Below, piece by piece: positions 1 to 4,508 of a stretch of 4,508 nt of DNA. Where the stretch lies: the IMG/VR virus record IMGVR_UViG_2734482588_000007. The stretch is one strand, 5' to 3'. Positions within the stretch are counted from its first letter, which is position 1. Every line of letters starts with the position of its first letter. The stretch comes from a virus. Taxonomy: Duplodnaviria > Heunggongvirae > Uroviricota > Caudoviricetes. Position numbers and translations under genes: made by a program. The notes under the pieces are model-generated. The model ran no database searches. It saw only the letters and a program-made list of their open reading frames with translations, and had not been told where the DNA came from.

Positions 1-61
1 GAACCGTTCTGACAGCTTCGGCTTTGAACTCTTTAGAGTAACGTTGGGTTTTTCTGCTCAT
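1..61 (-). CDS. IS3-family transposase OrfA, N-terminal 20 codons only (gene continues beyond the left window edge)
   Basis: Reverse complement of 1-61 reads ATG AGC AGA AAA ACC CAA CGT TAC TCT AAA GAG TTC AAA GCC GAA GCT GTC AGA ACG GTT = MSRKTQRYSKEFKAEAVRTV. The Y-S-x-E-F-K-x-E-A-V motif is the typical N-terminus of IS3-family OrfA (HTH) proteins; from memory it resembles IS600-type OrfA. A strong SD (minus-strand AGAAGGAG, plus 69-76) sits about 8 nt upstream of the ATG (plus 59-61). Partial, so absent from the ORF track. Confidence 0.6.
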   Translation of the reverse strand, partial: MSRKTQRYSKEFKAEAVRTV

Positions 62-125
62 TATTAGCTCCTTCTGATGCCATTCTATTTCAGGAAGGAG
101 TGTCCGTTAAACTCAGGCTACCTCA
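1..125 (-). mobile_element. Partial IS3-family insertion sequence (left end: terminal repeat, orfA leader and orfA start); boundary approximate
   Basis: About 64 nt lie between the orfA ATG and a candidate terminus. The minus strand read from position 125 begins TGAGGTAGCCTGAGTTTAACGGACAC, which has the TGA-start, CTGA-TTT-containing style of IS3-family terminal inverted repeats. An alternative end is TGAGTTTAACGG from position 115. The other IS end is outside the window, so the inverted repeat and target duplication cannot be confirmed. Confidence 0.45.
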
Positions 126-802
126 GGTTATTCGCTTCTGGGCATGGGCGGATCAACAAATGATAGACGGTAATGCAGATTGTAACGCTCGCGGCGTTAC
201 AAAAAGTGCAATAGATCGCATCACTTTTATGTCTGGTTTTGCTGATGCGTTAATTCAGGTTGGATGGCTGGTCGAAAATGACGGAGGGCTTTCTCTACCT
301 AACTTTGAACGTCATAACGGAAAAAGCTCTAAAAAAAACGGGCGGTTACAAACGAGCGAGTAACAAAAATACGCGAACTGAAACGAAAAGGTAACGCTGC
401 CAGCGTTACACAAACGGATCAAAAAGCGTTACCAGAGGAAGAGGAAGAGGAAGATCTAAATACTGATCTCCCCCTCGCCAAAAACGAGCGTCTAAAAAAT
501 TCGAGCCGGAGGCTATTGAGCTGCCCGATTGGTTGCCGGAAACACTCTGGCATGAGTGGGTCCGGTTCAGACAGGCATTGCGAAAACCGATTCGAACGGA
601 GCAGGGCGCTAACGGGGCGATACGGGAACTGGAAAAATTCCGTCAGCAGGGTTTTACACCTGAGCAGGTGATTCGACACAGCATCGCCAATGAATACCAG
701 GGCCTGTTCGCGCCGAAAGGTGTTCGGCCTGAGACGTTGCTCCGACAGGTTAACACCGTCTCGTTGCCGGACAGTGCGATCCCGCCAGGCTTCAGGGGGT
801 AA
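126..802 (+). pseudogene. Phage replication initiator (replisome organiser) with DnaT-like C-terminal domain; 5'-truncated by the IS and interrupted by two -1 frameshifts
   Basis: Protein-like coding runs in frame 1 (126-339, VIRFWAWADQQMIDGNADCNARGV...HNGKSSKK), then frame 3 (333-~497, RAVTNERVTKIRELKRKG...EEEEEEDLNTDLPLAKNERLK), then frame 2 (~497-802, FEPEAIELPDWLPETLWHEW...). The C-terminus VNTVSLPDSAIPPGFRG* closely matches the E. coli DnaT C-terminus as I recall it (NTVSEPDSQIPPGFRG). Frame switches coincide with A8 (331-338) and A6 (494-499). The gene sits directly upstream of a DnaC-like gene, as in the host dnaT-dnaC arrangement. No valid start: the ORF-track GTG at 100 lies inside the IS end and abuts the SD-like sequence. 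Confidence 0.6.
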
Positions 803-808
803 CGGACC

Positions 809-1555
809 ATGAAAAATATTGCGACAGGCGGCGTTCTGGAACGCATCCGCCGACTGACCCCGCCACATGTAACCGCCCCATTCAGAACGGTAGCGGAGTG
901 GCGCGAGTGGCAACTTGCTGAAGGCCAGAAACGTAGCGAGGAGATCAACCGCCTGAATCGCCAGTTGCGGGTGGAAAAAATTCTGAATCGCTCAGGCATC
1001 CAGCCGTTGCACCGTAAATGCTCGTTTGCGAATTACCAGGTGCAGAACGACGGCCAGCGATACGCGTTAAGCCAGGCGAAATCCATCGCCGATGAACTGA
1101 TGACCGGGTGTACAAATTTTGCGTTCAGCGGAAAACCTGGTACCGGGAAGAATCACTTAGCGGCAGCTATCGGGAATCGCCTGCTGAAAGACGGTCAGAC
1201 AGTGATTGTGGTTACCGTGGCTGATGTTATGAGCGCCCTGCACGCCAGCTATGACGACGGGCAGTCAGGCGAAAAATTTTTGCGGGAGCTGTGCGAAGTG
1301 GATCTGCTGGTTCTTGATGAAATTGGCATTCAGCGCGAGACGAAAAACGAGCAGGTGGTGCTGCACCAGATTGTTGATCGCCGGACAGCGTCGATGCGCA
1401 GCGTGGGGATGCTGACAAACCTGAACTATGAGGTGATGAAAACATTGCTCGGCGAGCGGGTGATGGATCGCATGGTCATGAACGGCGGGCGCTGGGTGAA
1501 TTTTAACTGGGAGAGCTGGCGTCCGAATGTTAGCCATTCGAGGGTTGTTAAGTAG
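809..1555 (+). CDS. dnaC: DnaC-like replicative helicase loader (AAA+ ATPase), prophage paralog
   Basis: 248-aa ORF with SD AGGGGG (794-799) 9 nt upstream of ATG 809. Walker A GKPGTGKNHLAAAIG and Walker B DLLVLDEIG are present. Roughly 50% identical by eye across the full length to E. coli DnaC as recalled (MKN...P.H..P.F.T...NRSGI.PLH..CSF.NY.V...GQ..ALS.A...FSGKPGTGKNHLAAAI...TVAD.MSA...DLLV.DEIG.Q.E.K.E.V...QIVDRR....R..GMLTN.N...M..LLGERVMDRM.....WV.FNW.S.R), with the same length. Confidence 0.9.
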   Translation: MKNIATGGVLERIRRLTPPHVTAPFRTVAEWREWQLAEGQKRSEEINRLNRQLRVEKILNRSGIQPLHRKCSFANYQVQNDGQRYALSQAKSIADELMTGCTNFAFSGKPGTGKNHLAAAIGNRLLKDGQTVIVVTVADVMSALHASYDDGQSGEKFLRELCEVDLLVLDEIGIQRETKNEQVVLHQIVDRRTASMRSVGMLTNLNYEVMKTLLGERVMDRMVMNGGRWVNFNWESWRPNVSHSRVVK

Positions 1556-1569
1556 TTTCAGGAGGATTT

Positions 1570-1992
1570 ATGGCGAAACCTTTTACTCCCGAACAGCGGG
1601 AAGAACTGAAGACGCGAATTGTGGAACTCGTGCATCAGGACGGTCGGGTCACGATTCGGCAGTTGTCAGATGAAACAGGTATCAGTCGTGCGTCTGTCGG
1701 TCGCTTATGCATAGAACTGGTCGCAAGTGGTGATGTATATAATTCTGGCTACGGCTTATTCCCGTCTGAACAGGCTCGCAAGGACTGGCAAAGCGCCCGC
1801 AAAAAACTCTCGAGAGTAAAGGTGAGGAAACCGGTTGTTGTTGATCCGGACCTTATCTGGTCATTACCTGACGGAGAAATACGCCGCTACGACAGGCGCC
1901 TGAATATAATCTGTCGCGAGTGCCGGAAGAGCGAAGCTATGCAGCGTGTACTGGCTTTCTATCAGGGTAATTTTCAGGAGGCGATACTGTGA
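1570..1992 (+). CDS. Hypothetical small HTH protein, tentatively Ren-like
   Basis: 140-aa ORF with SD GGAGG (1561-1565) 4 nt before ATG 1570. Predicted helix-turn-helix segment RVTIRQLSDETGISRASVGRLCIELVASGDV. The C-terminal motif ECRKSEAMQRVLAFYQG resembles the lambda Ren C-terminus as I recall it (ECRQSAAMKRVLAVYG), and the gene sits immediately after the P/DnaC-like gene as ren does in lambda. The family assignment is from memory and unverified. Confidence 0.6.
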   Translation: MAKPFTPEQREELKTRIVELVHQDGRVTIRQLSDETGISRASVGRLCIELVASGDVYNSGYGLFPSEQARKDWQSARKKLSRVKVRKPVVVDPDLIWSLPDGEIRRYDRRLNIICRECRKSEAMQRVLAFYQGNFQEAIL

Positions 1993-2406
1993 ATGAAATT
2001 AGCTATCAGGCTTCAATTACCGCTGGCATTCGCATCAAAGGAGAGGAGCATGGAAATAAAACCAGAAGATGAGTTAAGCAATATCGTTTTATTTCCGGTA
2101 AAAGAGGATGACCCTCGTAATCAGGTTAATTTTCTTTATGAGCCATCGGAAAGACCATATTGCCATCACGCCTCTGTACGGGTTGACGAAAAAGAGCGTC
2201 AGGTCCGCTGTAAAATCTGCGGTGCGGTTGTGGAGCCGTTTGACTGGATGCTCTCTGTGGCAAAAAGAGAAACCAGACTGGCAGATGATGTAAGGCTATT
2301 GCGCCAGGAGGAACAGGAAAGGCGGAGAAATATAGAAAAGCTGATACAGATTGAGCGTAACGCGAAAGCGCGGATACGCAGGGCGACAAAATCCAGAACT
2401 GAATAA
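1993..2406 (+). CDS. Hypothetical Cys/His-rich (putative zinc-ribbon) protein with basic coiled-coil C-terminus; alternative start at 2050
   Basis: ATG 1993 overlaps the upstream stop (TGAATG at 1990-1995), suggesting translational coupling. An internal ATG at 2050 has a stronger SD (AAAGGAGAGGAG, 2037-2047). Contains C-H-H...C-x2-C (YCHHASVRVDEKERQVRCKICG) followed by a charged helical tail (LLRQEEQERRRNIEKLIQIERNAKARIRR). No family recognised. Confidence 0.5.
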   Translation: MKLAIRLQLPLAFASKERSMEIKPEDELSNIVLFPVKEDDPRNQVNFLYEPSERPYCHHASVRVDEKERQVRCKICGAVVEPFDWMLSVAKRETRLADDVRLLRQEEQERRRNIEKLIQIERNAKARIRRATKSRTE

Positions 2407-2553: not shown

Positions 2554-3240
2554 ATGACCCCAATAAACATATTTATGACAGTTGCTGATTTCAAACGGCC
2601 CAAATTGGAGCTCCCAAACGGGGCAAACAAACTACTACTGCACTCTTGCTGTGCTCCATGTTCCGGTGAGGTGATGGAGGCGCTTCAGGCCTCGGGAATC
2701 GACTACACCATCTTTTTCTACAACCCGAACATTCATCCTCAGAAAGAGTATTTAATTCGTAAGGATGAGAATATTCGCTTTGCTGAACAACACGGCGTGC
2801 CGTTTATTGATGCTGATTACGACACAGACAACTGGTTTGAACGAGCCAAAGGAATGGAATGGGAGCCCGAACGAGGGATCCGTTGCACCATGTGTTTTGA
2901 CATGCGTTTTGAGCGGACAGCGCTGTACGCCGCTGAAAATGGTTTCAGTGTGATCAGCAGTTCACTGGGCATTTCACGCTGGAAAAATATGCAGCAGGTT
3001 AACGACTGTGGGCGGCGAGCCGTCGCGCATTATCCGGGCATGGTGTACTGGGATTATAACTGGCGCAAGCAGGGCGGCTCGTCCCGTATGATTGAAATCA
3101 GCAAGCGCGAAAAATTCTATCAGCAGGAATATTGTGGCTGTGTGTATTCTCTGCGCGATACCAATCTACACCGCAAATCTCAGGGACGCCCTCTTATCAA
3201 AATTGGTCAACTCCACTACGGTAAAGAAGAGAAGGAGTGA
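2554..3240 (+). CDS. queH: QueH-like epoxyqueuosine reductase (DUF208 family)
   Basis: 228-aa ORF carrying the N-terminal motif [12 protein letters not shown] (nt ~2634-2667) and a downstream YCGC motif (nt ~3129-3140). Size and cysteine pattern match the QueH/DUF208 family as I know it. Start could alternatively be ATG 2575; neither start has a clear SD. Confidence 0.8.
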
Positions 3241-3266: not shown

Positions 3267-3582
3267 NNNNNNNNNNNNNNNNNNNNNNNNNNNNNNNNNN
3301 NNNNNNNNNNNNNNNNNNNNNNNNNNNNNNNNNNNNNNNNNNNNNNNNNNNNNNNNNNNNNNNNNNNNNNNNNNNNNNNNNNNNNNNNNNNNNNNNNNNN
3401 NNNNNNNNNNNNNNNNNNNNNNNNNNNNNNNNNNNNNNNNNNNNNNNNNNNNNNNNNNNNNNNNNNNNNNNNNNNNNNNNNNNNNNNNNNNNNNNNNNNN
3501 NNNNNNNNNNNNNNNNNNNNNNNNNNNNNNNNNNNNNNNNNNNNNNNNNNNNNNNNNNNNNNNNNNNNNNNNNNNNNNNNNN
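3267..3582. other. Run of 316 N (assembly gap or masked sequence); content unknown
   Basis: Uninterrupted n characters from 3267 to 3582. Every ORF-track entry spanning this region (poly-X translations) is an artefact. Confidence 0.99.
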
Positions 3583-4104: not shown

Positions 4105-4458
4105 ATGGCACATATACAACTGGTCAAACAAACCTCTTCCGGATTACTTCTCCCGGCGACGCCGGAGAGTTGCGATTTTCTGCATCAAATCAAAATAGGT
4201 GAGTGGATACACGCAGACTTTAAGCGTGTGTGTAACTACGCATTCCACAAGCGTTTTTTCAAACTCCTGCAACTGGGTTTCGATTACTGGACTCCGGTCG
4301 GTGGGGCGATCACGCCTCGCGAACGAAAACTGGTGTCCGGTTTCGTTGATTACCTGTGTGAATCAGTAGGCCGGGAACATACGCCAGCTCTGAGCGAAGC
4401 CGCAGAGCAATTGAGGTGTACTGGCAATAGCGGACACTACCATTTGTTCTTTTTTTAA
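4105..4458 (+). CDS. Hypothetical phage-associated protein (117 aa from ATG 4105); C-terminus possibly truncated at a T7 run
   Basis: ATG 4105 is preceded by SD GGAGA (4094-4098) with 6 nt spacing. The ORF-track TTG start at 4063 is less likely. Protein-like composition (MAHIQLVKQTSSGLLLPATPESCDFLHQIKIGEWIHADFKRV...). The ORF ends FFF* inside TTTTTTT (4450-4456). No family confidently recognised. Confidence 0.45.
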   Translation: MAHIQLVKQTSSGLLLPATPESCDFLHQIKIGEWIHADFKRVCNYAFHKRFFKLLQLGFDYWTPVGGAITPRERKLVSGFVDYLCESVGREHTPALSEAAEQLRCTGNSGHYHLFFF

Positions 4459-4508
4459 GCAGCCATCTGATGATATTTTTCCCTGAAGGCTGCCGGGGAG
4501 ATATTCCC

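Follow-up and report, generated by a model that had tools for sequence, protein, structure and literature searches.

The stretch of DNA analysed here, called the window, has 4,508 nucleotides (nt) and comes from the IMG/VR virus record IMGVR_UViG_2734482588_000007 (Caudoviricetes); it is the rightward early region of a decayed and defective lambdoid prophage of the Rac/Qin type. Two small genes on the same strand are of concern: gene A, which encodes a Ren-like protein with a winged helix-turn-helix (wHTH), and gene B, which encodes a protein with a zinc ribbon followed by a long helix (Table 1). A sequence-only reading of this DNA had taken the two for a translationally coupled pair, possibly a superinfection-exclusion, anti-defence or regulatory module; its description of the sequence was largely right, as was its lead to Ren of phage lambda, and the coupled pair is the part that did not stand. 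The main yield of the present analysis is indeed a correction of the annotation: gene B starts at 2050, and the "overlap" with gene A is a coincidence that probably stems from a deletion scar. A and B are probably two independent delayed-early genes of a defective prophage, a Ren-like gene and a mobile zinc-ribbon cassette, which a deletion made adjacent.

Table 1. Features of the window, numbered from its first nucleotide (aa, amino acids; AF2, AlphaFold2 model; HTH, helix-turn-helix; ORF, open reading frame; pN/pS, ratio of nonsynonymous to synonymous polymorphism)
Feature	Position	Strand	Evidence or remark
IS600 end	1-125		transposase start and IS end; same orientation as the copy at 4412-4508
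Replication-initiator pseudogene	100-802	+	
DnaC/YdaV-type helicase-loader gene, directly 5' of gene A	809-1555	+	IstB_IS21/Bac_DnaA ATPase matches; phrog_50 "DnaC-like helicase loader", E 1e-82
Shine-Dalgarno AGGAGG of gene A	1560-1565	+	direct reading; 4 nt before ATG 1570
Gene A, Ren-like/DUF977 winged-helix protein, 140 aa	1570-1992	+	PF06163, E 1.1e-33; phrog_142, E 2.7e-44; pN/pS 0.27
Winged HTH of A, residues ~7-66	1588-1767	+	AF2; variation and mosaicism fall in the recognition-helix region
C-terminal Ren signature of A (NIICRECRKSEAMQRVLAFY)	1903-1962	+	BLASTP
Probable 27-codon relic of an ead/Ea22-like gene	1989-2072	+	third-frame translation
Supposed N-terminal extension of B (137-aa form)	1993-2049	+	outside the conserved protein
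Constant 5' leader of the B cassette	2021-2049	+	Shine-Dalgarno AAGGAGAGGAG at 2038-2048
Gene B, zinc ribbon and long helix, 118 aa	2050-2406	+	phrog_1621
N-terminal peptide ELSNIVLFP of B	2071-2097	+	consensus acidic-N-V-V-x-F-P
Zinc ribbon C38-x-H40…C54-x2-C57, then (D/E)PFD(W/Y)	2161-2247	+	numbering of the 118-aa form
Single long helix of B, residues 63-117	2236-2400	+	AF2; invariant basic stretch NIEKLIQIERNAKARIR
QueH homologue	2554-3240	+	
N run, 316 bases	3267-3582		between the QueH homologue and the phrog_340 ORF
phrog_340 ORF, 95 aa	3779-4066	+	phrog_340 (unknown function), E 6e-20
Truncated NinB/DUF1367 gene	3' of the phrog_340 ORF	+	
IS600 end	4412-4508		other IS end; same orientation as the copy at 1-125

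Start of gene B and origin of the A-B spacer

The ORF downstream of gene A ends at 2406 and can be read from 1993, as a protein of 137 aa, or from the ATG at 2050, as one of 118 aa; the sequence TGAATG, in which the stop of A overlaps a possible start of B, is present at 1990-1995 as had been described. Comparison of 91 E. coli-type copies revealed that the codon at -19 relative to 2050 is ATG in the variant of the window, GTG in many copies and GTA in several, and that it is absent where other DNA precedes the cassette; the sole constant upstream part is the 30 nt before ATG 2050, with the Shine-Dalgarno sequence GGAGAGGAG. The leader is identical or nearly so in 90 of the 91 copies, regardless of the DNA further upstream, and nucleotide similarity to the Shiga toxin (Stx) phage ArgO145 starts at ~2021. 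Homologues from Kluyvera, Klebsiella, Erwinia, Serratia, Yersinia and other genera begin MTTETE.ELSNVV.FP, which aligns with MEIKPEDELSNIVLFP at 2050; the phrog_1621 match to the 137-aa form starts at residue 20, and PGAP annotates the gene with 118 aa. Because the upstream start is not conserved, the N-termini of the homologues align at 2050, and the PHROG match and the PGAP annotation both leave out the first residues, alignment of the family fixes gene B as the 118-aa frame, with its own ribosome-binding site, 57 nt 3' of the stop of A. The extension to 137 aa is judged to be non-coding leader plus relic sequence. Thus, of the second protein as first described, the ORF to 2406, the Cys/His motif and the charged helix stand and the 137-aa form does not; neither does the stop/start overlap as the conserved initiation site of B or as a sign of translational coupling.

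As for the 57-nt spacer, its third-frame translation (VNEISYQASITAGIRIKGEEHGNKTRR, then a stop) suggests that it is the collapsed remnant of an ead/Ea22-like gene, of which 27 codons are left. The GTG of this relic overlaps the stop codon of gene A, and its stop lies 21 nt inside gene B; its C-terminal 15 residues are those at the C-terminus of the ead/Ea22-like protein gp18 of ArgO145 (…AGIRIKGEEHGNKTRG, then a stop), except for the last residue, and its N-terminus, VNEISYQA, resembles the Ea22-like start VSKIDYQE. In ArgO145, the genes of gp18 and of the B homologue gp17 overlap at the start of the latter; in 26 related loci, the gap between A and B holds one or more full genes, 0.6-1.6 kb long, often a DUF4406 gene and an Ea22-like gene. 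The deletion of the intervening Ea22-like gene would thus have made A and B adjacent, and their junction would not be that of a designed operon. Regarding transcription, a scan of 1400-2700 gave one promoter-like and one terminator-like match, both on the opposite strand and not in excess of the number in shuffled sequence; the coding strand between A and B has neither kind of site, in agreement with a single transcription unit. Rfam and repeat scans of the interval gave no Rfam match and no repeat.

Co-occurrence was followed in 92 E. coli-type copies of B in fetched loci, in six loci from other genera and in 5,426 complete E. coli genomes. A DUF977 gene, the family of A, stands directly upstream of B in 50 of the 92 copies, upstream with an insert of 0.6-1.6 kb in 26, and farther upstream in four; none was found for the remaining 12, nine of which have at least 2 kb of upstream DNA. 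The six loci from other genera have no DUF977 gene near B (5/5 among those with at least 2 kb of upstream DNA), and the start of B overlaps there the stop of whatever gene precedes it; in loci L010-L016 (Kluyvera, Erwinia, Photorhabdus and Pantoea), B closes the series of nin genes and directly precedes a Q-like antiterminator gene. A metagenomic lambdoid contig has a 39%-identical homologue between NinB and NinG/Q, and ArgO145 has gp17 in the leftward early operon, after the Ea22-like gene and without DUF977. Of the E. coli genomes, 1,679 (~31%) carry the B cassette and 3,617 carry A-type DNA, and the two are contiguous in 888. Finally, B is 97-100% identical across copies in which the identity of the neighbouring A varies between 54 and 100%, a pattern that marks mosaic shuffling; conserved co-occurrence of the pair, which a coupled module would entail, is largely lacking.

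Both genes also occur in fused forms. A and B share the reading frame, which makes possible the rare in-frame A-B fusions of 278 aa (P0385, P0386, P0388 and P0390), in which the TGA stop of A is mutated to Trp or Arg; these are single-member clusters, mostly on one to four contigs. On several contigs, instead, an Ea22-like N-terminus with its coiled coil is fused to a complete B domain in natural proteins of 254-264 aa; the listed fusions of this kind (P0002, P0122, P0383, P0389 and P0391) span 202-264 aa. Their two parts meet in an "EAREIKP" stretch common to both, or the B leader is read through, and such proteins hint that an Ea22-type scaffold can take B as its effector domain.

Gene A as a member of the Ren/DUF977 family

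Gene A scores 116.5 bits against Pfam DUF977 (gathering cutoff 22.1), over positions 1-134 of the 134 of the model, and PGAP labels the identical E. coli protein "DUF977 family protein". It also matches phrog_142, "Ren-like exclusion protein", with residues 1-139 against positions 1-115 of 116; lambda Ren (NP_040633) itself matches phrog_142 over its full length (E 1.6e-41), and the DUF977 profile aligns with Ren end to end in hhalign (89 columns, probability 95.6%, E 1.3e-8). Pairwise BLAST of gene A and Ren detects the C-terminal block alone, with 12/20 residues identical (60%, E 3e-7 in BLASTP) to Ren residues 73-92; this block contains the motif ECRxSxAMxRVLAxY, nearly invariant among DUF977 proteins. 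The helicase-loader gene ends at 1555 and gene A starts at 1570, so that A fills the ren slot, the order in lambda being P and then ren. On these profile matches and alignments, gene A is a member of the Ren/DUF977 family: the resemblance to Ren noted in the first reading holds, as does the placement in the ren slot directly 3' of the loader gene, and gene A gives a well-supported link between DUF977 and lambda Ren, relevant to thousands of prophage genes.

Regarding function, two-hybrid assays reported contacts of the Rex proteins with O and Ren (bioRxiv 10.1101/2021.04.19.439022), and Ren was dispensable for P-lethality and replicative killing (PMC3640518). A literature search for DUF977 gave no functional study, the one paper on DUF977 noting the winged-helix fold only. 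"LygF", another name in this family, is a label propagated through annotations, and a search for it gave no paper on the function of phage or prophage LygF, the matches being unrelated and mostly on lysozyme g.

The description of the first protein as a 140-aa HTH ORF was correct, since it agrees with the DUF977 score, with a Pfam HTH_24 match (E 7e-6) accompanied by IclR- and MarR-type HTH matches, and with a wHTH in the AF2 model. This model has a predicted local distance difference test score (pLDDT) above 90 for residues 1-82, with helices at 7-24, 29-36 and 40-53 plus the wing, and a poorly defined C-terminal part; its top Foldseek matches are generic wHTH proteins of the GntR, IclR and MarR types only. 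A search of PDB chain sequences with proteins A and B gave chance-level matches only, and PADLOC-DB gave for gene A weak generic HTH matches only (E >= 0.0017). The N-terminal part, including the recognition helix, comes in discrete types, each of them mostly paired with certain upstream genes: the type found in the window is preceded by a DnaC-like gene in 25/25 copies, and such a tie fits A as an accessory of the replication module. It should be noted that a mosaic boundary lies inside gene A, after the first ~47 codons (1570-1710), as in megablast ~3,600 E. coli genomes match from nt ~141 onward only.

The gene B protein and the readings of the pair

Gene B matches phrog_1621 over its full length: in the 137-aa form the match spans residues 20-136 (E 5.1e-56), and the 118-aa form gives E 3e-56. 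Among 28 Enterobacterales homologues, residues L9, N11, F15 and P16 and the block I95-R110 are invariant, and the acidic NVVxFP peptide is found near the N-terminus of ~40% of 138 diverse representatives of the family. The columns of the ribbon are invariant or nearly so in close and distant alignments, with AF2 strands at 43-46 and 51-54; the motif had been read as C-H-H…C-x2-C, and of this the Cys/His pattern is conserved, its conserved form being C38-x-H40…C54-x2-C57. The highly charged helical tail was confirmed as a helix of ~55 residues, which bears the invariant stretch LIQIERNAKARIR and has pLDDT 89-94 over residues 81-110. Across the wider family, the CxH…CxxC ribbon, the (D/E)PFD motif and an L..ERNAKARIR-type stretch are kept, together with L98, E102 and R108.

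Conservation and a coding signature of this ORF were both found. B has a pN/pS of 0.05 over 44 alleles, to be compared with the 0.27 of A, both genes being under purifying selection and conserved well beyond what chance would give. Its word-indexed homologues number 148, in Enterobacterales and beyond; homologues with 45-72% identity occur in at least eight genera, with the Cys/His residues invariant. A search with a hidden Markov model profile of the family over 1.84 billion representatives (clusters at 50% identity) gave 1,616 representative clusters at E <= 1e-3 and 251 at E <= 1e-10, with proteins typically of 100-190 aa, some of them apparently from high-GC genomes as judged by amino-acid composition. 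In a set of 26 diverse relatives, all match phrog_1621 and phrog_8538, and 25 match phrog_4865. Two diverged copies can coexist in one phage, as a second, distant paralogue of B (25-29% identity) lies 1-3 kb downstream in the same nin region of three loci (L055, 5976-6302; L056, 7793-8125; L077, 5929-6174).

As for named relatives, the literature search on the accessions of the B proteins and on phrog_1621 gave no functional study, tblastn of distant members against isolated phages gave no named phage gene, and PADLOC-DB had no match for gene B; the distant homologues on high-GC and other metagenomic contigs have unannotated phage genes as neighbours, with no recurrent partner. A beta-clamp-binding reading of the NVVxFP peptide was discarded, its hydrophobic register misfitting the QL[SD]LF motif, and so was a DksA/TraR-like reading of B, in view of the reversed domain order, the CHCC ligand set and the lack of a Pfam match. 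The B family is the useful lead of this work: it is widespread and very strongly constrained, Stx-converting phages carry it, as do ~31% of complete E. coli genomes, and despite this spread it has no Pfam entry, structure or function.

The reading that we hold probable, of two independent delayed-early genes made adjacent by deletion, can be extended to what each gene may do. The product of gene A would most likely be a DNA-binding accessory of the replication module, acting through its wHTH, and by analogy with lambda Ren, whose gene is defined by resistance to RexAB exclusion, it may protect the development of its own phage against exclusion of the Rex type. Gene B is a cassette complete in itself, which invariably brings along the final ~30 nt of an ead/Ea22-like gene; its product is predicted to be zinc-stabilised and to oligomerise through the long helix, and it may act at an early stage of infection or induction on a target that is conserved across bacteria, either a nucleic acid or a core host machine, with the invariant basic helix and/or the N-terminal peptide as candidate contacts. 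In this respect, B may have its counterpart in the C-terminal effector domains of Ea22-like proteins, which are exchangeable. Several points weigh against this picture. Ren itself has been called only "likely involved in DNA replication" (bioRxiv 10.1101/2021.04.19.439022). For B, the proposed oligomerisation and target binding derive from sequence features; the AF2 monomer has a moderate pLDDT of 75, low at the N-terminus, Foldseek of the model against PDB and BFVD gave nothing below E 0.19, neither Pfam nor NCBIfam has a family for B, and its relatives are in 22 of 50,697 phage records, as "hypothetical" in all 22. Finally, about half of the sampled copies have B next to A and the rare A-B fusions exist, so that a functional link between the two is still conceivable.

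That A and B form a dedicated, translationally coupled module, a Ren-like HTH protein with a zinc-ribbon partner for superinfection exclusion, anti-defence or regulation, appears quite unlikely. Their direct adjacency in 50 of the 92 copies and in 888 genomes, the common strand with no coding-strand promoter or terminator in between, and the common frame with the 278-aa fusions would all suit such a module; yet the TGAATG start is not conserved and the true start, with a Shine-Dalgarno sequence of its own, is 57 nt downstream, the spacer is probably what a deletion left of an Ea22-like gene, ArgO145 and all six loci from other genera have B without A, and A-type genes are in about twice as many genomes as B. 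Moreover, A falls to 54% identity next to a B that stays at 97% or more, which speaks for recombinational shuffling and not for co-evolution, and each of the fusion proteins is a cluster of its own, in most cases from one to four contigs. A toxin-antitoxin reading of the pair was also rejected, as each gene occurs alone. The A-B pair should accordingly not be counted as a module in co-occurrence or defence-island screens. To take B, or the 137-aa form of it, for a spurious ORF of a decaying prophage is next to impossible, and for the 118-aa gene this is already refuted: the prophage is certainly defective, with its IS600 ends, frameshifted replication-initiator gene and truncated ninB, but the pN/pS value, the homologues in at least eight genera with invariant Cys/His residues, the 1,616 clusters and the presence of intact B in inducible or isolated phages all stand against it. 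ArgO145 and vB_EcoS-640R1 are examples of phages with this cassette.

Regarding the role of B taken by itself, an inhibitor of a host anti-phage system, that is, an anti-defence (counter-immunity) gene carried as a mobile accessory cassette of the nin and exo-xis regions, is an unlikely explanation. It would agree with a small, non-essential gene that is absent from the examined lambda rightward region and present in few phage records (the 22 mentioned above), that moves between two hotspots of accessory genes, and that has methyltransferases, the Ren-like gene and Ea22-like genes as neighbours; conversely, very strong purifying selection and motifs invariant across phyla point to a conserved target and not to an arms-race partner, there is no PADLOC match or literature link, and the fold is unlike any known inhibitor in the Foldseek searches of PDB and BFVD. 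Docking of B on RNA polymerase through a TFIIB-like zinc ribbon, as a transcription factor that modulates early-to-late expression, is an improbable reading: the weak similarity to Zn_Ribbon_TF (E 2e-4, 21 bits), the TFIIB N-terminal ribbon as top Foldseek match (E 0.44) and the position immediately upstream of a Q-like antiterminator gene in the six loci from other genera point in its direction, but the Pfam score is under the gathering threshold, 4/26 diverse members match at E<0.01, small zinc ribbons match each other generically, B is far from Q in E. coli, and no DksA/TraR or other family of RNA polymerase binders was matched in Pfam. A tentative proposal, somewhat better placed than these but still doubtful, is that the B proteins are a large unnamed family of early proteins of temperate phages that, with the acidic NVVxFP peptide for docking, act on a single bacterial machine or nucleic-acid structure of universal conservation and also serve as a detachable effector for Ea22-like scaffolds; if true, the family would be a new class of host-takeover or developmental-switch factor. 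In any case, both A and B are ordinary prophage content, and their families are already catalogued without a known function.

Prophage setting and comparison with known systems

The two genes lie in a 4.3-kb prophage fragment between two IS600 copies, which resembles a composite element. The left-hand IS600 insertion truncates the replication-initiator gene, and the right-hand one truncates ninB/DUF1367 at residue ~103 of ~198. In addition to the cut at 125, the initiator pseudogene has a frameshift from two extra A's in a poly-A run (331-332), with the intact 260-aa gene of E. coli FDAARGOS_943 as reference, and it is also rearranged within a GAA/GAG (poly-Glu) repeat at 449-468. The window has a counterpart of 100% identity in an IMG/VR contig (L020), and the E. 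coli FDAARGOS_943 locus (L001), with ~99% identity, has the arrangement intact and labels the helicase-loader gene ydaV. The 316-base N run stands in place of 410 bases in L020 (6218-6627), so the masked length is not the real one; this segment encodes a HokD-type type I toxin (MKQQKAMLIALIVICLTVIVTALVTRKDLCEVRIRTGQTEV…) plus its upstream regulatory region. The QueH homologue, here in the nin region, is a full-length epoxyqueuosine reductase (PF02677, E 2e-65; phrog_3217, "unknown function"), an enzyme of the tRNA queuosine pathway carried as phage cargo, for which PGAP sets the start 21 nt further in; the Rfam scan was empty upstream of it, with no preQ1 or other riboswitch. The phrog_340 ORF has no Pfam family and is "hypothetical" in the E. 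coli relative.

Compared with known systems, B brings no new architecture to the PHROG clusters 1621, 8538 and 4865, all of "unknown function", which are catalogue clusters with neither structure nor name. With zinc ribbons of the TFIIB and S27e types, B has in common a two-strand metal-binding knuckle of similar size and a weak similarity of profile and fold; it differs from them in scoring under all curated thresholds (21.1-21.5 bits for Zn_Ribbon_TF, PF08271, with a cutoff of 29), in its CxH…CxxC ligands in place of C4, and in the 55-residue helix after the ribbon, which those families do not have. The link of B with the ead/Ea22-like proteins (PF13935; lambda Ea22) is one of position and fusion and not of homology: an Ea22-like 3' end always precedes B in E. 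coli, natural fusions join the two, and both are early, non-essential and coiled-coil-rich, whereas B has no match to PF13935. Ea22 is tetrameric with exchangeable C-terminal domains and was reported to favour lysogeny (PMC10834534); the C-terminal domain of lambda Ea22 has a mixed alpha-beta fold (PMC10834534), in contrast with the zinc ribbon of B.

As for gene A, it is a clear member of PF06163, whose proteins bear the name "DUF977 family protein" or "LygF" in the records of prophages and phages, with no structural difference from them. Lambda Ren and gene A have the same family-level profile over their full length, the same N-terminal wHTH and the same C-terminal block, N-[IL]-[IV]-x-[KR]-E-C-R-x-S-x-A-M-x-R-V-L-A-x-Y; within the rightward early operon, both immediately follow the helicase-loader/P gene. 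They differ in length, 140 aa for A and 96 aa for Ren, with ~45 extra residues in A between the HTH and the C-terminal motif; their overall identity is ~25%, Ren is below the Pfam DUF977 threshold and A above it, and the loader upstream of A is of the DnaC type and not lambda P.

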